From a candidate division FCPU426 bacterium (GTDB lineage Bacteria; Oederibacteriota; Muellerivitia; Muellerivitales; Muellerivitaceae), in the NCBI GenBank assembly GCA_963771075.1, contig CAVYSE010000028.1:96001-160000 (forward strand): 64,000 bases of DNA, read 5' to 3'. The notes under the pieces are model-generated. The model was given only the letters and a program-made list of their open reading frames with translations. It had not been told where the DNA came from and made no database searches. This document shows, one piece after another, positions 10,194-19,652 of the stretch. A program made the translations under genes and the position numbers. Position 1 is the stretch's first letter, and each line of letters begins with the position of its first letter.

Positions 10194-11561
10194 ATGAGAA
10201 GAATGAAAAGCGTGAATGGCTCTAACAAATATCTTTTTTTAGGTCTTTTTCTTCTTCTCTTCGTTTTGCGCACGGCCTTCGGCTTGAGCGACGAATTCAT
10301 GGAAAACGACCGTCTTCAAACCTACCTGATCGGTTTGAAATGGTATTGTACGGGCGATTGGCCTTATTTCGGGCCCGACCTGGTTTTCTTGAGCACCCTG
10401 CGGGGCCAGATTCCCGGGGCCTTGGAATCTTTCGTCGTGGGCGGGCCCTTCTTCGTCCTTCCCATCCCCGAAGCTCCCTTTCTTTTCCTCAATCTCCTTT
10501 CCCTTTCTTCCATTGCCCTTTTGAGCTGGTATCTTTCCAAGCGGATCTTATCCATCCCTTTCCTTTTCATCTTCGCCTGGATTTCCCTCCTCCCCTGGAC
10601 CCTGAACCAATCCACCTGGGTTTTGAACCCGAGTTACCTGCTTTTCGGAAGCGTGATCTTTTCCATTGGGCTAATGGAAGCCATTCCCGCCCTTTCCATC
10701 CAATTCCTGAAACCCGCCCAGGCCCTGGCCTGGATGGGATTCGGGCTCTGTTGGGACATGCAGTTTCATTTTTCGTGGATACTATTGGCGCCCTATGTGC
10801 CCATCGCGCTTTTGTTATATAGCCGGAAGGCGGGTTGGGGCCAGGTCCCGAAGCTTTTGTTTTATTTCGGCTTGGGCGCCCTGGTACCCGGGTCCTTGAT
10901 CCTTCCGACCCTGATTCGCTACGGCTGGCACTGCCTTTTTACAGGCGAAAGCACCTTCATTCTTTTCAACTTGGATCATGCCCTGTCCTTTTTTACCATG
11001 TTGGCCCGCTACCTTTCCCTGGCCTGTTACGAGATTCCCCGTTTTGTCGGGAACCACACAAGCGACCGATGGGAGTTCCTGACGGTAAAGGACCCCTGGT
11101 TGTTCCCCTTCGCGATGTTTCTGCTCCTCGTGGGATGGATCCAGCCCCTTGTGATGCTATGGAAGGGAGGCATTCAACCTCTTCTTTCCCTCCCAAAGCG
11201 AATCCCGAATGGCGGTCGCCCGGGTGAGATGCCGGTTTTATGGCTCGCTTGGTCCGCGTTTTTCTTGTATTACATCAGTTTTTGGTTCACTCAAAAGGAA
11301 CCCTTCGCCCATATCGCTTACGTCTATTTCCCTATCGTGACCGTCTTCTCTTTTTATATCTGGGACCGGTTCACCCCCCAACCCTTTTGGAGGAAATTCG
11401 GGGTCCTTTGCCTGACGGCCGGTTTCTTTTTACAAACGGGACTAACGCTCTATTGGATCCCCCGGCGGTCCCTTTACCTCAACCGAAACCAGGTGGTCCA
11501 ATCCATCCAAGAGAAAAATTACCACATTCTGGGCGAGCGCAGGCCCGGCGCCCTTTATTAA
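10194..11561 (+). CDS. Polytopic membrane protein (possibly GT-C-like), paralogue A
   Basis: 455 aa with many TM segments; paralogue at 18285-19652. Confidence 0.8.
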   Translation: MRRMKSVNGSNKYLFLGLFLLLFVLRTAFGLSDEFMENDRLQTYLIGLKWYCTGDWPYFGPDLVFLSTLRGQIPGALESFVVGGPFFVLPIPEAPFLFLNLLSLSSIALLSWYLSKRILSIPFLFIFAWISLLPWTLNQSTWVLNPSYLLFGSVIFSIGLMEAIPALSIQFLKPAQALAWMGFGLCWDMQFHFSWILLAPYVPIALLLYSRKAGWGQVPKLLFYFGLGALVPGSLILPTLIRYGWHCLFTGESTFILFNLDHALSFFTMLARYLSLACYEIPRFVGNHTSDRWEFLTVKDPWLFPFAMFLLLVGWIQPLVMLWKGGIQPLLSLPKRIPNGGRPGEMPVLWLAWSAFFLYYISFWFTQKEPFAHIAYVYFPIVTVFSFYIWDRFTPQPFWRKFGVLCLTAGFFLQTGLTLYWIPRRSLYLNRNQVVQSIQEKNYHILGERRPGALY

Positions 11562-11991: not shown

Positions 11992-12019
11992 TGTTCCTTT
12001 TGGGTCCCCGTCGCGGACA
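11992..12019 (+). repeat. 28-bp putative recombination site 1
   Basis: TGTTCCTTTTGGG-TC-CCCGTCGCGGACA; right arm conserved, left arm degenerate; 14 bp after the recombinase-domain stop. Confidence 0.75.
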
Positions 12020-12046: not shown

Positions 12047-12322
12047 CTAGGACGTTTCATTTACTCTAAGACCCTTAAGTTTCACGGCAACCGACTTCAA
12101 TATTTCAGGCCGGGGATAGTTATAGACGCCTATCACTTTCTCTATACTGGCTAAATGATTGACGACTTGATCAATCGACTTATTTTTCAAAATTATTTTT
12201 ATAATTCCCGGGATATAAACGTCATATTCATCATGAGCATTCGGCTGATCTGAAACTCCGATTGGATCCCAATCACGAATTAAAATTTCATGTATTTTTT
12301 TAAATAATTCTTCGTTTTTCAT
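12047..12322 (-). CDS. Small AT-rich protein, DUF1871-like (cassette gene 1)
   Basis: MKNEELF...DWDPIGV...DEYDVY; fills most of the interval between sites 1 and 2. Confidence 0.75.
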   Translation of the reverse strand: MKNEELFKKIHEILIRDWDPIGVSDQPNAHDEYDVYIPGIIKIILKNKSIDQVVNHLASIEKVIGVYNYPRPEILKSVAVKLKGLRVNETS

Positions 12323-12351
12323 TTCATACTCTTGCTTTTTATTTCCGAGCA

Positions 12352-12379
12352 TGTCCAATGCGGGTCCCCGTCGTGGACA
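12352..12379 (+). repeat. 28-bp putative recombination site 2
   Basis: TGTCCAATGCGGG-TC-CCCGTCGTGGACA. Confidence 0.8.
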
Positions 12380-12397: not shown

Positions 12398-12745
12398 TTA
12401 ATACTTCCTGTGACAACTTGAACATTTATTTAAGTGACCAGAAACAGCCTTTAATATCCAATACGAAACATTCCAATTGAGCCTTTTCCCACAGTGGGGA
12501 CAAGCAAAACGGACCATTGGCCAGAAGCCAAGAAACATGAGTACTGCGAAACAAATTTCCAAGCAAATAGAAGTCGGATCGCTTTTCAACATTGAGCTTG
12601 GGAAGTGTTTTGAAAAAGAATAAATCAATAAAAATAAGATGCCCATTGTAGCAAAAAACCAAACTACAGTTTTTCGAACATTAGCCAAAGTCGCTTTTCG
12701 TACGGAGAGCATTTCTAATAAGATGAATTTAGAGCGATTCGCCAT
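12398..12745 (-). CDS. Small 2-TM protein with C-terminal zinc ribbon (cassette gene 2)
   Basis: Two hydrophobic segments, then CPHC...CSSC; RBS-like GAAAGGTG before the ATG; AT-rich. Confidence 0.7.
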   Translation of the reverse strand: MANRSKFILLEMLSVRKATLANVRKTVVWFFATMGILFLLIYSFSKHFPSSMLKSDPTSICLEICFAVLMFLGFWPMVRFACPHCGKRLNWNVSYWILKAVSGHLNKCSSCHRKY

Positions 12746-12767: not shown

Positions 12768-12795
12768 TGTCCACGACGGGTCCCCGTCGTGGACA
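12768..12795 (+). repeat. 28-bp putative recombination site 3 (perfect palindrome)
   Basis: TGTCCACGACGGG-TC-CCCGTCGTGGACA: perfect 13-bp inverted arms around a TC dinucleotide. Confidence 0.85.
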
Positions 12796-12852
12796 CCTAA
12801 AACCCTTAATAAACTCTATTTTATCCTTTTTGTCGAAATGACGGCAGAATAC

Positions 12853-12887: not shown

Positions 12888-13205
12888 GTGATATCAACAC
12901 TGCCACAATGCGTGAAAGAGATCGCAGAATTCCCCCAAGATGTACGGGAAGATCTCGCCGACGCTTTAGCACGATTGGATGAAGGTCACACGCTTTCCAT
13001 GCCCCTGTCCCGGCCGATGCCTTCAATTGGAAAGGGTGTACATGAATTGAGATTCAGGGATCGTGCAGGAATTTATCGGGTGATCTATATTTTGGTTGGC
13101 GCGGGAATCATTTATTTGGTTCATGCATTTGTGAAAAAAGACAAGAAGACGCCGATGCCGAATATTGATTTGGCGAAAAGACGCTTAAAGGAAGTGAAAA
13201 GATGA
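12888..13205 (+). CDS. Type II toxin, RelE/ParE (HigB/Gp49-like) family
   Basis: MPLSRPMPSIGKGVHELR...GIYRVIY...LVHAFVKK..KTP; toxin-first order with an ATGA overlap. Confidence 0.9.
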   Translation: MISTLPQCVKEIAEFPQDVREDLADALARLDEGHTLSMPLSRPMPSIGKGVHELRFRDRAGIYRVIYILVGAGIIYLVHAFVKKDKKTPMPNIDLAKRRLKEVKR

Positions 13206-13489
13206 AACATAAAAGTACGGCGGTTGAAATTGCGAAATTGGTAGGTATTTCTCCAGCGAGAGGAATGGAGGCTATTATCAAAGCACAACTGATAACAGCT
13301 GTTTTGCAAGCCATTCAAGTTAAGAAAATGACTCATCAGGAACTCGCTAAGCGCGCAAAGCTCCCCAGGAGCGCCGTGACGGGTATTCTTTCTGGCAGTT
13401 TGCAGAAGGTCACCATTGATCGAGTTCTGAGACTCATTGAAGCGGCGGGTCTTATCGCGGAGATTCGAATCAGAAAATCTGCCGCCTAA
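13202..13489 (+). CDS. XRE-family HTH antitoxin
   Basis: MTHQELAKRAKLPRSAVTGILSG...TIDRVL HTH; translationally coupled to the toxin. Confidence 0.88.
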   Translation: MKHKSTAVEIAKLVGISPARGMEAIIKAQLITAVLQAIQVKKMTHQELAKRAKLPRSAVTGILSGSLQKVTIDRVLRLIEAAGLIAEIRIRKSAA

Positions 13490-13623
13490 AGAAAGTTCTG
13501 GGGGAACATTACCGAATAAAAACAAAGATAGCATGTATGGGCCAGCGACCTGCGTAGTAGCTTGATCAATAGTAGCTGATCAAAAACGCGGGTTGCTCCT
13601 GTTAAGGAGCCTGAACATTGGGG

Positions 13624-13895
13624 TCACCTATGAAAAAGAATGTCCAGGCAAAAGCGTAGTATCACGGCCCCAAGTCCAACCTGAGTCTCAAAGGACTACA
13701 AGTCAGTCACCTATTCGCGGTTGTTTCACCGCACGATAACGTTGGACCCGGCCGCTCAATCACCTATGAAAAAGAATGTCCAGGCAAAAGCGTAGTATCA
13801 CGGCCCCAAGTCCAACCTGAGTCTCAAAGGACTACAAGTCAGTCACCTATTCGCGGTTGTTTCACCGCACGATAACGTTGGACCCGGCCGCTCAA
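13624..13895 (-). repeat. Perfect tandem duplication, 2 x 136 bp, in the IS 3' non-coding region
   Basis: 13624-13759 and 13760-13895 are identical by inspection; TCA continues at 13896-13898. Confidence 0.95.
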
Positions 13896-13953
13896 TCAGG
13901 CCAAGGACCTCAACTCTTGCGGGTTGTGTCAGACCCCGTCGGAGCTGGCCGGG
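13805..13953 (-). ncRNA. Predicted bridge/seek RNA of the IS1111 element
   Basis: Two stem-closed loops. Target loop guides GGGGTC and TTGGCCTGA match the flanks GACC-TGA-CCCC. Donor loop guides GTTATC and ATAGGTGA match the junction ATAGG-TGA-TAAC. Boundaries approximate. Confidence 0.75.
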
Positions 13954-14951
13954 CAGTCCTCAAAAGCTTCCTTCTTTCGTAACATATGAAAGATGCTTTT
14001 CAGCATAGCCCTTGCTACTGCTATTCGTCCCGCGTTATTCCCATGCTTCTTCTTCACCCTCGTGTATAAGGTCCCATACCGTCGGGTTTTGCGAATGGCA
14101 TGAAGCGAGTTCTCAACCAATATCCAGCGAATCCATTTAGAACCCTGTTTGGTGATGTGGCCGTTGTGGCTTTTTCCCCCTGATGCGTGAACACTGGGGA
14201 CCAATCCACCATAAGAACATAGATGTTCCGCGTCCGGGAACCGGCGAATATCCCCAATCTCGCTCAAAATTAATAAAGCCGAAAAGGCACCCACGCCTGG
14301 CATGGTCATCATCAGCTGGGCTTCCGGGCTTTCTGCTGCCATTTTCTTGATCACCTCTTCTGATTTGGCGATCTCTTGGCCTAGTTCCCGGATTACTTCC
14401 ATATATCCGTCCAGTTCCAAACGGTAGCAAGGCCGGGTACCTACCGTGGCAAGTTCGCGGAAGTTCTTTATTCCGAATCGGTTTTTAGTAACGGGTTCGA
14501 TTCCCGCCTTGGTCATGACCGAAGTCATCCGGTTTTTGGCTTGTGTTCTCAATTGCACCAGGGAAGCCCGGTACCTAAGGATTTCCCGTAAGTCGCGGAT
14601 CTCTCGGGGTGGCACATAGGCTCGTGGCAGCAGATCCACCCGCAAAAGTTGAGCCAGGATTCCCGAATCAATTTTATCCGTCTTGATCTTGGCCGAGGCT
14701 ATGGCTTTGACCTTTTGGGGGTGGGCCAATACCAGGTTGGGGAATCGATCCTCGATGAGTTCGTAAAAGTGATACCAATGACCTGTGGCTTCTACTACGA
14801 CCTGGCTACTCACGGGTTGCTTCTTGAAATAAGCCTTTAAAGTATCCGCGTCGTTCTTCAGATCGACTTGTTCCAGCACCTTTCCTTTCTCATTCACTCT
14901 CGTGACGTAGGATGTTTTCTGGTGTAGGTCTACTCCGATATACTGTCCCAC
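13929..14951 (-). CDS. IS110-family DEDD transposase/recombinase
   Basis: IGVDLH, VVVEATG, KIKTDKIDS, MPGVG, YGGLVPSVHASGG, GHITKQG; RBS AGGAGG upstream of GTG. Confidence 0.97.
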   Translation of the reverse strand: MGQYIGVDLHQKTSYVTRVNEKGKVLEQVDLKNDADTLKAYFKKQPVSSQVVVEATGHWYHFYELIEDRFPNLVLAHPQKVKAIASAKIKTDKIDSGILAQLLRVDLLPRAYVPPREIRDLREILRYRASLVQLRTQAKNRMTSVMTKAGIEPVTKNRFGIKNFRELATVGTRPCYRLELDGYMEVIRELGQEIAKSEEVIKKMAAESPEAQLMMTMPGVGAFSALLILSEIGDIRRFPDAEHLCSYGGLVPSVHASGGKSHNGHITKQGSKWIRWILVENSLHAIRKTRRYGTLYTRVKKKHGNNAGRIAVARAMLKSIFHMLRKKEAFEDCPASSDGV

Positions 14952-15094
14952 GGCTGCACCTCCTAAGCGTTTTGCACCACCTGCAAAGGTGAGTGCCTTT
15001 TCGACTCTGGGTTTATCCTAGAGCCTCGTCCCACTTAAGTGGAGACGCTCTACGCTTGGAGCTCTGCAGCCTTTTTCATGTTATCAGGTCTTTA

Positions 15095-15185
15095 TTTTAT
15101 ATTATCTATCCGGGCCTTGAACCGCGTCTCTCCCTCCATCCGCTTCTTTATTATCGCTATCCGGTTCCCCACGGCCGAAGAAGAA
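15095..15185 (-). pseudogene. Remnant C-terminal tail of a REP-associated (Y1) transposase-like gene
   Basis: Manual translation SSAVGNRIAIIKKRMEGETRFKARIDNIK* resembles the ORF at 18022-18216 (ASAVGNRWLTMKKRIRED); the stop is followed by AGACC-TGACCCC once the IS is removed. Confidence 0.55.
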
Positions 15186-15666
15186 AAAAGGCGCCTGGCC
15201 AACATTCAACACTTTAAGCCGTTCATTCCCCTGGAGTCATTGATCATCGTACTCCTGGAATCTCCCTGGCGCCCTTCAGGAAATCAGTTTACAGTTCGCC
15301 CCAATAGCTCATGGCAATTGGGATCACCAAACCACGCCTCTCACCTTGAAGGTTCGAGGCAGGAGACAGTTCGCAGCCCATAAACGGCAGAAAAACTGCA
15401 ACATTATTGACCGATTTTGACCCTTTAGGCCTGTTCCCCACCCAAATATTCGCTTTCATTCGATTTTCCAATTGACGCACAAAAGCATAGCTATTAGTTA
15501 TTAGCTGTTAGCGTTTAGCTGCGGCCTAAACCAAGAGCAAGAAGCTAACACCTTAGGGGAGAATTCCATTAGTTGGCGGTCGACAGTCGACGGTCGGCAG
15601 TTAGGCCTTTAAAGCTGGCTGTCGACAGTGGGCTGTGGACTGTCGACGGCCTTTGGAGGCTCCGCT

Positions 15667-18033
15667 ATGTCACAATCCCCATCTACCCCCGGTACACCCG
15701 AAGAATCGCCAAAAGCAAACCCGCCCGAAATCCTGGTCGTTTCCCTGGACCAGATGCTGGTCGTGCCGGAGGACAACCCCCGGGGGGCCTACCCCCAGCA
15801 AGATGTCTTGGACATGGCCCGAACCCTCAAGCAGTCCGGACAGGAGGATCCCATCCTCCTGAGGCGCCGGACGCCCGAGGAAAGGGCTCAGGCCCACCCG
15901 GACATTCCCTATCGGCTGGTAGGGGGATTCCTCCGTGTTGCCGCCGCCCCCCTGGCGGGCCTGGCCGCCCTTGAAGCCATTGTGCGGGATATGACCCCCC
16001 AAAAGGCACTGCAAGCCGCAATCCTGGACAATGTTCGTAAAGACATGAATTGGCTGGCCTGGGCCCAATCCGCCGATAGCCTGATTAAGGACGGAATGAA
16101 GCTCCAAGAAGCCTCCGATGCACTTGCGAAAGATGCCTCATGGGTCGGAAAACTGCTAAAACTGTTGTCATTATTGGATTTTCCAACACGCCAGCTCATT
16201 TCGGAAAATTTCCGGAAAAAGGACGGTTACGACCTTCCGGAATCCCATGCCCACTGTTTGGAAGACCTGGCGACCGGGGGGCCAAACGATCAGGTTCTTA
16301 TAGGTAATGCCATACGAGTGGTAATAGACCGCCAAATGCCTTTTGAACTTGTGAAAAAGCTGGTCGAATGGATCCAAAAGGGAAACAGCCCTGAAAGCTT
16401 CCCCCAAGACGGCAAAACAGAGGTCAAGAAGGGGGTTAAAAACCAGAGGTTCGACCCCGCCGACCCCCTGGCCAAGCTTTGGCAAGACCTGCCCCGCACC
16501 ATCAAGGTGCGTCCGACACCCAAGGGCTATAAGGCGGTACTGGCCCTTTCTAAAGACGAAGCGGTACTGGCCCTTTATGGCGCCCTGGGCACGGTGGAGG
16601 AGGCCAAGAGGCTTCAAGGCCAGCCCCATGACCCCCGGTTCGCGGCTGCTTTGGCTGACCTCATTCCTGGAGGTAGGCCTGGTGGAATTCTGAATGCGTC
16701 CTTTCCGGCCTCCCCCGCCAGCCTGGGCCTGGGCTCCTGGCTTAAAGGGGTATGGGCGGCATGGATGGGCAGTCTTAAAGCTGGCGGTCCGAAGACACCA
16801 GCTGACAGCCCACAGTCGTCGGTCGACAGCACGCCAAACCCCGGGACAATGGAAAAAACTATATGGGAACTCTTGGCGGGGATCCCTATCACCGCCAAGA
16901 TAAGGGCCAAAGTCAAGAAGGGGGAAAGGCCGACCTTTTGGGAAGTTCTCATCCTCCTTTTAGCCATCCTTGGGATGTTTTTGGGCTTGCTGGGGAAATA
17001 CCTTTGGAAATTTGCCCAGGGGGGTTGGCGTTTGGCGAAGACCTTCCTCGGAAAGGCCTTCCGGCTCCTGGGGGAGGTGGTAGGCAAGCCCGCCAAGAAA
17101 ATAACCCAGGGCGTGGTGGGTATCGCCTTGGTAGTGGGCCTGGCTTATGGGCTCTATCTATTCTTCTTCCACCCGGCAGGGCTAAGGGGCTTGTTGAGCC
17201 GGACCGCCTCCGGGGCAATCCATTGGGTAGGGTCTTGGGTAAACCCTTGGGAAGGCGATACGCACACCGATTCCCCTAAGGAATCGGTGCAATCAAGTCA
17301 TGGGCCTCAACCCGAAGTTTCGGCCCAGATGAAGCCAGAGTCGGTACCTACGCCTGGTCTGAAACCTCCGGTTTCGGACCAAGCCTTGGCAGTACCCATA
17401 TCTAAATCAGATATGGGTACCCCTGTTCCCACGCCTGAGGTTTTTAAAACTAAGCGCCTAAAACTCAAAACTTCTAAATCTCTGAAAAAGTCCATTCCGG
17501 TGGCAGTGGTTTCAACGCAAAACTCAACACCTAAAACTGAGAACGCGGCCCCATCGGGCCAGTCCCAGTTGGACCTTCTCAACCAAATCAACGCGGAATC
17601 AAAAACCGCCCAGGCTTTCGCCCAGGCCTTTTACGCGGCGGATTATAACGACCTGTTGGGCAGGAGAACCAAACTCAACAAATATTTGAGGCCAGGCTAT
17701 TCCGGCGCTTTTTTCAAAGCCTTTCCAACCGGTTTGAAGATCAAGGAAATCGGCGAACATAAGCTGGTTGAAAGTTTCAAACCCTCGGGCGACGCGAAAC
17801 TGTTGAGGTCGGACGATCAATCGGAGGAATTCCAAGTGGAGGGCACCTTGGTCACCCGGAGTGAGATGGATATTACGGACCCCGTCACCACCCAAAAACC
17901 CGCGGGGCTCGTGATTGACCTCTCCCGTGAGCCGGAGTCGAAGGGGCTGGTGACCGGGGTGAGGGAAATGGTTTTTCCGGGAAAAAAGGTCAGCCCGGAA
18001 ATACAGGGGCCAGGCCAACATTTAACACTTTGA
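15667..18033 (+). CDS. ParB-like N-terminal domain fused to TM segments and a possible VirB8/TcpC-like C-terminal domain
   Basis: NPRG...LKQSGQEDPI...YRLVGGFLRVAAA...AILDNVRKDM plus HTH; two TM stretches; C-terminal AFAQAFY..DY..L pattern. RBS GGAGG before ATG 15667. Confidence 0.65.
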   Translation: MSQSPSTPGTPEESPKANPPEILVVSLDQMLVVPEDNPRGAYPQQDVLDMARTLKQSGQEDPILLRRRTPEERAQAHPDIPYRLVGGFLRVAAAPLAGLAALEAIVRDMTPQKALQAAILDNVRKDMNWLAWAQSADSLIKDGMKLQEASDALAKDASWVGKLLKLLSLLDFPTRQLISENFRKKDGYDLPESHAHCLEDLATGGPNDQVLIGNAIRVVIDRQMPFELVKKLVEWIQKGNSPESFPQDGKTEVKKGVKNQRFDPADPLAKLWQDLPRTIKVRPTPKGYKAVLALSKDEAVLALYGALGTVEEAKRLQGQPHDPRFAAALADLIPGGRPGGILNASFPASPASLGLGSWLKGVWAAWMGSLKAGGPKTPADSPQSSVDSTPNPGTMEKTIWELLAGIPITAKIRAKVKKGERPTFWEVLILLLAILGMFLGLLGKYLWKFAQGGWRLAKTFLGKAFRLLGEVVGKPAKKITQGVVGIALVVGLAYGLYLFFFHPAGLRGLLSRTASGAIHWVGSWVNPWEGDTHTDSPKESVQSSHGPQPEVSAQMKPESVPTPGLKPPVSDQALAVPISKSDMGTPVPTPEVFKTKRLKLKTSKSLKKSIPVAVVSTQNSTPKTENAAPSGQSQLDLLNQINAESKTAQAFAQAFYAADYNDLLGRRTKLNKYLRPGYSGAFFKAFPTGLKIKEIGEHKLVESFKPSGDAKLLRSDDQSEEFQVEGTLVTRSEMDITDPVTTQKPAGLVIDLSREPESKGLVTGVREMVFPGKKVSPEIQGPGQHLTL

Positions 18034-18284: not shown

Positions 18285-19652
18285 TTGAGGCGCATGAAAA
18301 ACACATCCCTATCCCCTGAAATTTCCTTTGTAAGCCTCTTCCTCTTTCTTTTTGTGTTTCGAACGCTTTTCGGCTTGAGCGGTGATTTTATGGATCCGGA
18401 TCACCTTCAAACTTTCCTGATCGGTTTGAAATGGTTCACCGAGGGAGGATGGCCATATTTTGGGCCGGATTTGGTCGTTCAGGGAGCCCTGCGGGGCCAG
18501 ATTCCCGGGGCCTTGGAATCTTTCGTCGTGGGCGGGCCCTTCTTCGTCCTTCCCATCCCCGAAGCTCCCTTTCTTTTCCTTAATCTCCTTTCCCTTTCTT
18601 CCATTTCCCTTTTGAGCTGGTATCTTTCCAAGCGGATCTTATCCATCCCTTTCCTTTTCATCTTCGCCTGGATTTCCCTCCTCCCCTGGACCCTGAACCA
18701 ATCCACCTGGGTTTTGAACCCGAGTTACCTGCTTTTCGGAAGCGTGATCTTTTCCATTGGGCTAATGGAAGCCATTCCCGCCCTTTCCATCCAATTCCTG
18801 AAACCCGCCCAAGCCCTGGCCTGGATGGGATTCGGGCTCTGTTGGGATATGCAGTTTCATTTTTCGTGGATACTGTTGGCGCCCTATGTGCCCATCGCGC
18901 TTTTGTTATATAGCCGAAAGGCGGGTTGGGGCCAGGTCCCGAGGCTTTTGTTTTATTTCGCCTTGGGCGCCCTGGTGCCCGGGTCCTTGATCCTTCCGAC
19001 CCTGATTCGCTACGGCTGGCATAGCCTATGGATCGGCGGCAGTACGACCGTTCTTTTTAACGCCAATCATGCCCGTGATTTTTTAACTATCCTGGCCCGT
19101 TATCTTTCCCTTGCCTGTTATGAGATCCCCCAGTTCATCGGCGGCCACACGAGCGAGCGTTGGGAGTTCATTACCCGTACGGCTCCATGGTTGTTCCCCT
19201 TCGCGATCTTTCTGCTCCTCGTGGGATGGATTCAGCCGTTCGTCATGTTGTGGAAGGGCTGGGTCCAACCCCTGGTCTACTTAAAAAGGAGGGGCCCGGA
19301 TAGCCTTCGATCGGGCGAGGGCCCGGTGTACCTATTAGCCGGATCGGCTCTCCTTTTTCTTTACTTGAGCTTTTGGTTTACGGAAAAGGAACCTGTTTCC
19401 CATATCGCTTACGTCTATTTCCCCATCGTGACCGTCTTCTCTTTATATATCTGGGACGGATTCGCCCCCCAGTCCTTTTGGAGGAAATTCGGGGTCCTTT
19501 GCCTGGCGGCCAGTCTTTTCTTCCAGGGCGGGGTGATGATGGACCGGTTGCCCCGCCAGTCCCTCTACCTAAACCGGAGCCAGGCGGTAAATGCCATTCA
19601 GGGAAATAACTTTCATTTACTGGGGGAGCGCAGGCCGGGTAGCCGAAATTAA
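18285..19652 (+). CDS. Polytopic membrane protein (possibly GT-C-like), paralogue B
   Basis: 455 aa, colinear with 10194-11561 at an offset of 8091 bp. Confidence 0.8.
   Translation: MRRMKNTSLSPEISFVSLFLFLFVFRTLFGLSGDFMDPDHLQTFLIGLKWFTEGGWPYFGPDLVVQGALRGQIPGALESFVVGGPFFVLPIPEAPFLFLNLLSLSSISLLSWYLSKRILSIPFLFIFAWISLLPWTLNQSTWVLNPSYLLFGSVIFSIGLMEAIPALSIQFLKPAQALAWMGFGLCWDMQFHFSWILLAPYVPIALLLYSRKAGWGQVPRLLFYFALGALVPGSLILPTLIRYGWHSLWIGGSTTVLFNANHARDFLTILARYLSLACYEIPQFIGGHTSERWEFITRTAPWLFPFAIFLLLVGWIQPFVMLWKGWVQPLVYLKRRGPDSLRSGEGPVYLLAGSALLFLYLSFWFTEKEPVSHIAYVYFPIVTVFSLYIWDGFAPQSFWRKFGVLCLAASLFFQGGVMMDRLPRQSLYLNRSQAVNAIQGNNFHLLGERRPGSRN

Follow-up and report, generated by a model that had tools for sequence, protein, structure and literature searches.

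Likely bispecific guide-RNA region of an IS1111-type element, with its first guide inside the transposase gene

A minus-strand region overlapping the end of a transposase gene had been proposed, in a sequence-only reading, to encode a bispecific guide RNA of the kind used by IS110 and IS1111 elements, with one guide inside the last codons of the gene. The locus raises the question of where such an RNA would lead the transposase, and whether a guide that is also coding sequence ties the choice of target to the protein. Here, we examined this region (13805..13953) in the window, i.e., the whole 64,000-nt stretch of DNA that was analyzed. Judged by its sequence features, the region is the right end and guide-RNA region of an IS1111-type IS110 element. 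We read it as a guide RNA because its stems and guides covary, its element has 7-bp and 3-bp terminal extensions and subterminal repeats, and its guides follow the IS1111 order. Very probably, it holds four covarying guides, the first of them in the last three transposase codons, which would direct the excised circle into the end repeats of Y1-transposase elements.

The element and its guide region

The transposase scored 238 bits against the NF033542 profile (cut-off 140). Residues D8, E54, D92, D95, and S257 were invariant across 34 aligned homologues, with S257 aligning to the SG motif region of IS621. The predicted structure had IS621 as its best match (E 1.5e-15, TM ~0.7), and the named protein matches carried generic IS110 labels at ~40%. 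The IS110 features present are a RuvC-like DEDD domain, a Tnp domain with a catalytic serine, and a two-loop RNA with guides around a short core. According to the available text of the IS1111 paper, IS1111 elements usually have subterminal repeats of 11-13 bp with extensions of 7 bp on the left and 3 bp on the right, and the top-strand match in the RNA precedes the bottom-strand match (PMC11187229). Given a TG core, the extensions outside the subterminal repeats were 7 bp (TG+ATAAC) and 3 bp (AGG), and both loops had the top-strand match first. The perfect subterminal repeat of the window copy was 9 bp, below the usual length; runs of 10-14 bp occurred in 29 of 50 clusters. The right non-coding region was longer than the left (166 vs. 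132 bp), with the RNA start already within the ORF. By its ends, its right non-coding region, and its guide order, the element would thus be classed as a member of the known IS1111 system.

The host genome contains seven full copies of the element, each with different flanks, along with two partial copies arranged as an inverted pair and one right end standing alone. For the window copy, the ends were fixed by alleles of its host repeat that lack the element. The inverted pair (contig C18:281545-283119) consists of two partial copies head to head with a 3-bp overlap join, one of them 93% identical with indels, and is possibly a long-read fold-back artefact. The solo right end, 44 bp long, lies at a Y1 remnant (C6:2793-2836), and a diverged right-end fragment of 58 bp was found at C1:118275-118331; in both, the inner break is not at the guide core. 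A second, distant IS110-family transposase (27% identity) is present in two copies (C9:2073-3068 and C5:85818-86813). Wider genome searches yielded hardly any further copies (2/401 genomes), and a scan of viral contigs found no relatives of the element.

Several features surround the element in the window. An 18-bp motif, seen by eye, occurs at 12002-12019, 12362-12379, and 12769-12796, the last a full hairpin, and its copies separate short minus-strand ORFs (12047-12358 and 12398-12745) like small cassettes. At 12888-13489, a Gp49-like (DUF891) gene overlaps an HTH_37 gene, resembling a type II toxin-antitoxin pair. Two ORFs for 455-aa membrane proteins (10194-11561 and 18285-19652) share long identical stretches and flank the IS, the cassette-like ORFs, and a ParB_N gene (15628-18033).

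Table 1 Positions of the element, its RNA features, and its flanks in the window
Feature	Position	Strand	Basis
IS1111-type element proper, 1,324 bp, TG core to first right end	13763..15086	minus	full copies, empty alleles
Left terminal extension, 7 bp: core TG + right-donor ATAAC	15080..15086	minus	identical in every copy; 7/3 IS1111 rule
Left subterminal inverted repeat, 9 bp perfect, 11/14	15071..15079	minus	sequence
First right end: -35-like TGGACA (13782-13777), right subterminal repeat (13774-13766), 3-bp extension AGG	13763..13782	minus	
DEDD transposase/recombinase, 340 aa	13929..14951	minus	PF01548+PF02371, NF033542, alignment, fold match
Target-loop stem, 5' arm, within ORF, codons ~334-337	13942..13953	minus	10 pairs, 97% of cells paired, 9 with two-sided changes
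First target guide, pairs with top strand right of core	13931..13939	minus	right-target positions +1 to +5 covary
Target-loop inner hairpin, variable, GCAA cap	13908..13928	minus	fold; length differs among relatives
Second target guide TGGCC + TG, pairs with bottom strand left of core	13897..13903	minus	left-target positions -1 to -5 covary
Predicted handshake dinucleotide AT, target loop: first two right-donor bases	13895..13896	minus	A in 35/37, T in 35/37 clusters
Target-loop stem, 3' arm	13883..13893	minus	consensus fold, stem covariation
Donor loop: closing GTC (13883-13881), first donor guide GTTAT (13876-13872)	13870..13883	minus	covariation, consensus closure
Donor-loop inner hairpin	13853..13868	minus	4 pairs, 100% of cells paired
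Second donor guide ATAGG + TG	13844..13850	minus	2.97/3 own vs. 2.15 permuted
Predicted handshake dinucleotide AC, donor loop: first two right-target bases	13842..13843	minus	
Closing GAC (13840-13838) and conserved 3' hairpin (13833-13820)	13820..13840	minus	consensus fold
Exact 136-bp second copy of 13898-13763 (target-loop 3' arm, whole donor loop, right end)	13627..13762	minus	
Left flank: 3' remnant of Y1 (TIRYT-like) gene and terminal inverted repeat; left target AGACC (15091-15087)	15087..15178	minus	tblastn with the genome's Y1 proteins; empty copies
Right flank: TG core and remainder of host terminal inverted repeat	13613..13626	minus	matches empty alleles

For comparison, homologous loci were collected as the best matches, at most 80 each, from relatives, genome contigs, and metagenome contigs. 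Of at least 176 loci, 166 had a readable stop, and for 77 inverted-repeat pairing by itself was enough to resolve both ends; 70 were kept after removal of duplicates and the window copy, forming 37 clusters at 80% and 50 clusters at 90% protein identity. Loci missing one or both ends (short contigs, distant clades) were excluded from all counts. One cluster comprised the six other copies of this genome together with locus L097. In two loci, L098 and L099, the right end measured 312-319 bp, roughly double what is usual.

All four guide motifs were found at the minus-strand positions that had been read from the sequence. Among 5000 dinucleotide-shuffled versions of 13805-13953, the matches arose singly 338, 125, 22, and 17 times, and no version held all four. 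We then carried out the test that the sequence-only reading had proposed, covariation of guides and insertion sites across homologues. All four segments covaried with their own junctions among the 70 loci (0/2000 permutations each, scored over 37 clusters), which supports the bispecific reading. The scores for own versus permuted junctions were 3.98 vs. 2.27 of 6 for the second target guide, 3.04 vs. 1.87 of 4 for the first donor guide, 2.97 vs. 2.15 of 3 for the second donor guide, and 3.59 vs. 2.91 of 5 for the first target guide, the last undercounted through misalignment. When the first target guide was re-anchored blind to the target (61/70 elements, 29 clusters), right-target positions 1-5 covaried (0.78-0.93 vs. 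0.64-0.77 permuted, 0-7/2000), and positions 6-7 stayed below significance; the covarying part is 13937-13933, plus the core-facing C. On the left, positions 1-5 covaried (0.68-0.84 vs. 0.33-0.49 permuted) and positions 6-7 did not. The second target guide, initially drawn at 13896-13904, therefore matches as proposed, but its covariation is limited to 5 nt of the left target (TGGCC) rather than its full length. Swapping targets between nearest neighbours favoured the own target by 19:0, 9:0, 17:1, and 15:0; no row served in two swap pairs, although branches may be common to several, and kin are not fully independent in either the permutation or the swap test. In the first donor guide, the bases that face the core were not conserved as complements among relatives. 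By sequence comparison, the pairing covers 5+2 nt on the left and 2+5 nt on the right.

The stems supported the same architecture. Both arms of the target-loop stem and the GCGGT/ACCGC hairpin lie where they had been placed, the latter pairing in 100% of cells. Across the target-loop stem and the donor hairpin, 98% of 546 cells were paired, compared with 28-46% in slid controls, and 13 of the 14 pairs had changed on both sides; the single-sequence fold was weak by itself (z -1.96), and no relevant Rfam family matched. The proposed GTCCAAC/GTTGGAC stem exists in the window (7 bp, 0/200 shuffles), but as the conserved closure of the donor loop it was unsupported, with at least 6 bp in only 6 of 39 relatives. 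The proximal GTC/GAC closure was kept in 34 of 39. The donor loop thus most likely closes on GTC/GAC, and the distal helix may be an alternative fold.

Core, handshake bases, and target

The core of the circle junction had been read as TGA. We found it to be TG, with a third base that varies at the right junction. The left junction was TG+A in 50/50 clusters, whereas the right was TG+A in 36, TG+T in 8, TG+G in 3, TG+C in 2, and CG+T in 1; the core G was imposed by the end-finding rule, and an unconstrained pass gave the same pattern. A three-base core was rejected because the third base belongs to the element at the left and to the target at the right.

As the sequence-only reading had noted, TGGACA and the left-end hexamer do stand 17 nt apart in the predicted circle. 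A TTGACA-like hexamer stood 16-18 nt from the left-end hexamer in 24/37 clusters, compared with 0-7 in shifted controls. A promoter scan of the linear locus returned 0 sites, as expected if the promoter forms in the circle alone. By analogy with characterised relatives, excision would bring the -35-like and -10-like hexamers together, a single transcript would bear both gene and RNA, and an RNA of ~135-150 nt would be cut from it, here within the ORF. No circle junction was found among the contigs of four sequencing runs. A single metatranscriptome yielded an RNA contig of 151 nt (depth 3) that derives from a 98% relative and covers 13971-13821; its ends and strand are uninformative, and its length is near the predicted span and that of long seekRNAs, reported as 148-172 nt in the text available.

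Once strands have been exchanged in IS621, each loop pairs with the partner DNA through the two bases that follow its second guide (PMC11208158). Here, the base after the second donor guide followed the first right-target base (0.89 vs. 0.64 permuted, 0/2000), and the next base behaved likewise (0.76 vs. 0.60, 2/2000). A non-A first right-target base was copied after the second donor guide in 14 of 18 elements, with 4 disagreeing, and where this base was A, another base followed the guide in 0/52. On the tree, the donor-loop position had 5 changes; supported branches gave 2 independent pairs, which both agreed with the handshake without reaching significance. The target-loop AT is too nearly invariant to carry a covariation signal. 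The covariation suggests that the two bases after each second guide would act as handshake guides. Flipping the DNA maps the element onto the IS621 scheme, and the bottom strand (in gene orientation) is therefore predicted to be exchanged first, which would make the reaction a strand mirror of that of IS621. The unflipped arrangement, a top-strand handshake after the first guides, was rejected, as those columns showed no covariation. In 36/50 clusters, target and donor did not differ at the first handshake position, a condition reported as unfavourable for IS621/IS622 in the accessible parts of PMC11208158 and 10.1101/2025.05.14.653916.

These post-guide bases might instead be extensions of the guides that grip the integrated junctions during excision, or be shared by descent, a reading that we find rather doubtful. 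Pairings after insertion and before excision involve the same base pairs (PMC13626964, in its available portion), and the supported independent pairs number only 2, but three different substitutions (G, T, and C) each follow the target, and, with the DNA flipped, the bases agree with the handshake guides of IS621 in position and length. We therefore prefer the mirrored handshake.

What the guides lead to can be read from the flanks. Sequence comparison identifies the landing motif as the terminal inverted repeat that bounds Y1-transposase elements known as TIRtrons, placed in subclass 2.1 (10.1101/279083) and given the terminal repeat consensus GGGGWSAS in the available text of PMC3733652. The target motif was within one mismatch of this consensus in 23/37 clusters. 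The RNA would likely direct the transposase to recombine the predicted circle into these repeats. Among the copies in the host genome, those on C19 and C26 lie within the end repeat of Y1 genes, and the copies on C3 and C28, the partial pair on C18, and the solo end on C6 lie 12-80 bp from Y1 fragments. The C11 flank resembles another repeat subfamily, and no Y1 match was found near the C18:92149 and C21 copies. The seven targets match 3-5/5 of the left and 5-7/7 of the right guide positions, and the match to the second target guide is exact at 2/7 copies. Across the resolved loci, a Y1 gene was detected beside 6/70 (3/37 clusters), counted over short flanks with queries from the host genome alone. 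The Y1 genes belong to PF01797, encode ~306-311 aa, and carry inverted repeats at both ends; they score 72.5 bits against NF047646, below the cut-off of 80.

Besides solo 3' remnants, the host genome carries about 15 Y1 genes of 300+ aa, some of them broken. Their inverted repeats start GGG(G)TCAG or GGGGCCAG and form several subfamilies. Repeats of 13 and 18 bp to the right of the C26 and C19 copies were considered as made by the IS and rejected, because the same repeat type follows the empty end C26:77297 and the C2 Y1 end. Locus L129 (88% protein identity) has the same RNA scaffold and first guide, with a second target guide changed to ATGAC; this matches another end-repeat subfamily of the host genome, and the left flank of L129 is off its contig.

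A duplicated right end and a coding guide

The window copy carries a 136-bp duplication that is absent from the other six full copies. Its join reads right end, core, and then the bases that follow the second target guide. The inner end is the sole 9/9 match in the element to left target, core, and AT, and the best mimic of the left junction among 79 TG sites. Most likely, the recombinase took the DNA encoding the second target guide, which spells left target, core, and two donor bases, for a left junction and then joined it to a right end, either by recombining the right junction with this decoy on a sister copy or through excision and re-entry of a 136-bp circle. The duplication is thus likely a misfire of the element's own recombinase.

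Slippage at the TGA microhomology, or an assembly error without involvement of the recombinase, seems unlikely to us. It would fit a single event and the absence of a bridging contig in three DNA runs (coverage gaps prove nothing), and the same assembly has the degenerate, read-chimera-like inverted pair on C18. Against this, the ends of the duplication are the exact right core and the exact best mimic of the left junction, and a join with one end fixed could have used any of 28 TGA or 80 TG sites. No recurrent duplication or truncation at guide templates was found beyond the window copy, either in a repeat scan of the 166 loci with a readable stop or by eye in unresolved loci at ≥42% identity. 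In the portions of the literature available, tandem repeats of non-coding DNA that have a true donor boundary on one side are described for IS110 elements (n=468; 10.64898/2026.08.14.744561), as are ssr9 duplications of ISPpu9 (PMC12288879).

The first guide does lie in the last transposase codons: GGGGTC encodes G339-V340, followed by the TGA stop at 13931-13929, and the guide region as a whole (13931..13939) encodes D338-G339-V340 and touches the stop. Among relatives, the first guide was wholly within the ORF in 25/41 clusters, in all three frames (14, 8, and 3), with the stop ranging from 46 nt before to 38 nt after the guide. The overlap state switched at least 4 times on a tree of 39 rows, from which two frameshifted rows were left out. 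In the predicted structure, the last helix ends at residue 326, and residues 335-340 have pLDDT <50; the distance from the VAR motif to the C-terminus varied from 22 to 46 residues in 119 homologues. The sequence-only reading had suggested that the overlap couples retargeting to the protein tail. Retargeting does rewrite the codons (GV, RV, GA, and DY in one frame), but a functional constraint was not borne out: the overlap is labile, the tail has low pLDDT, and changed first guides were found in 6/25 clusters inside the ORF and 6/16 outside (Fisher p 0.48; small numbers).

Because the state is labile, all three frames occur, the tail is of low confidence, and retargeting shows no brake, we consider the overlap neutral. 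It most likely reflects drift of the stop codon through a dispensable tail and is common among relatives and likely harmless; the coding guide is genuine, though probably a neutral variant. A regulatory side effect is possible, as cutting the RNA out would leave an mRNA lacking a stop.

A functional overlap, in which each transcript gives either full-length protein or guide RNA and so balances the two or limits transposition, strikes us as improbable. The RNA would be obtainable only by cutting the mRNA within the ORF, or would fold only when the ribosome is absent. The 5' stem arm and first guide do lie in the ORF here and in 25/41 clusters, the sole RNA contig begins in the ORF (a weak point), and there are precedents in the accessible texts: co-transcription and processing have been proposed for IS1111 (PMC11187229), and TnpB RNA lies inside the 3' coding region and is processed from its own mRNA (10.64898/2026.09.09.750255). 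However, the guide is outside the ORF in 16/41 clusters, at least four state switches and three frames speak against a maintained arrangement, and characterised IS1111 RNAs begin 39-74 nt past the stop (PMC11187229 and its preprint). It is very improbable that the amino acids encoded by the guide matter to the protein and constrain retargeting: the 12 closest proteins (74-97% identity) all end alike in PASS/LASS-x-G/R-V and GGGGT occurs in 19/25 guides inside the ORF, but GGGGT also dominates outside it (10/16, p 0.48) because the target repeat itself keeps GGGG, and the poorly predicted tail and its variable length noted above point the same way. Neutral drift remains our preferred account of the overlap.

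Relation to known systems

Elements with bridge or seek RNAs are being engineered for genome editing, and what is known of their mechanism comes almost entirely from IS621 and ISCro4. This clade supplies a natural, base-by-base pairing map for an IS1111-type RNA, from which the first-exchanged strand and the handshake positions are predicted in testable form. The mirrored handshake and the guide template as decoy are the more useful and testable outcomes, rather than the coding guide. For design, RNA boundaries set at the stop codon would lose the first guide in more than half of the clade, and the RNA-encoding DNA is predicted to be an off-target in its own right. Taken together, guide, core, and handshake bases account for 9 of the 14 junction bases, so that every such element would have decoys built into its RNA gene. 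A bolder combination, in which IS1111 is the strand mirror of IS621, these decoys duplicate donor-loop modules, and a transcript serves as either protein or guide, is speculative and in our view probably overreaches; if true, decoy firing would be a route to multi-loop or arrayed guides.

We found no literature report of IS1111 handshake bases or of a coding guide in the accessible texts, including PMC13604230 and 10.1101/2025.10.25.684509; figures, preprint supplements, and subscription papers (e.g., those on ISCro4 in Science) may hold either. The comparisons below draw on the same accessible portions. The IS1111 paper cautions that the IS110 and IS1111 families should not be assumed to work alike (PMC11187229). 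Like the element described here, ISEc11, ISKpn4, ISPa11, and ISPst6 have a DEDD transposase of ~340 aa, a long non-coding right end, subterminal repeats flanked by extensions of 7 bp and 3 bp, and a top-strand match before the bottom-strand match (PMC11187229). They have a junction promoter, which here is predicted from the hexamers. The long RNAs of ISEc11 and ISPa11 start 74 and 39 nt after the stop, whereas here the 5' stem and first guide lie in the ORF (PMC11187229). The present element further differs from these four in that its target is a TIRtron end and that the donor loop and handshake bases are resolved by covariation.

IS621 and ISCro4 (IS622) share with our element the protein fold, two RNA loops with two guides in each, and a 2-bp core, and the dinucleotide after their second guide pairs with partner DNA, as is predicted here (PMC11208160, PMC11208158, PMC13626964). 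Their RNA lies in the left end, with a CT core and a top-strand handshake; here, the RNA lies in the right end, with a TG core and a predicted bottom-strand handshake. Their guide order is also opposite to that of the element.

In TnpB systems, the guide lies beyond the ORF. The TnpB reRNA (omegaRNA) resembles the present case in that a guide scaffold lies inside the ORF end of its own protein and is cut from the mRNA (10.64898/2026.09.09.750255). The TnpB protein and RNA are unrelated to those of the element, and here the variable guide is itself coding. In ecological terms, the element would follow the end repeats of another, little-studied mobile element. IS4321 and IS5075 are reportedly IS1111 members that have Tn21's terminal inverted repeats as their target. 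Like our element, they land in the terminal repeat of another mobile element; their host is a Tn3-family transposon, whereas here it is a Y1/HUH TIRtron (PMC3733652; 10.1101/279083). Finally, in the tandem repeats and partial circles of IS110 elements (10.64898/2026.08.14.744561) and in ssr9 (PMC12288879), as here, the repeated unit ends at the true left-donor boundary. In those tandem repeats the other boundary is mostly unassigned, whereas here it coincides with the DNA encoding the second target guide, core, and handshake bases.
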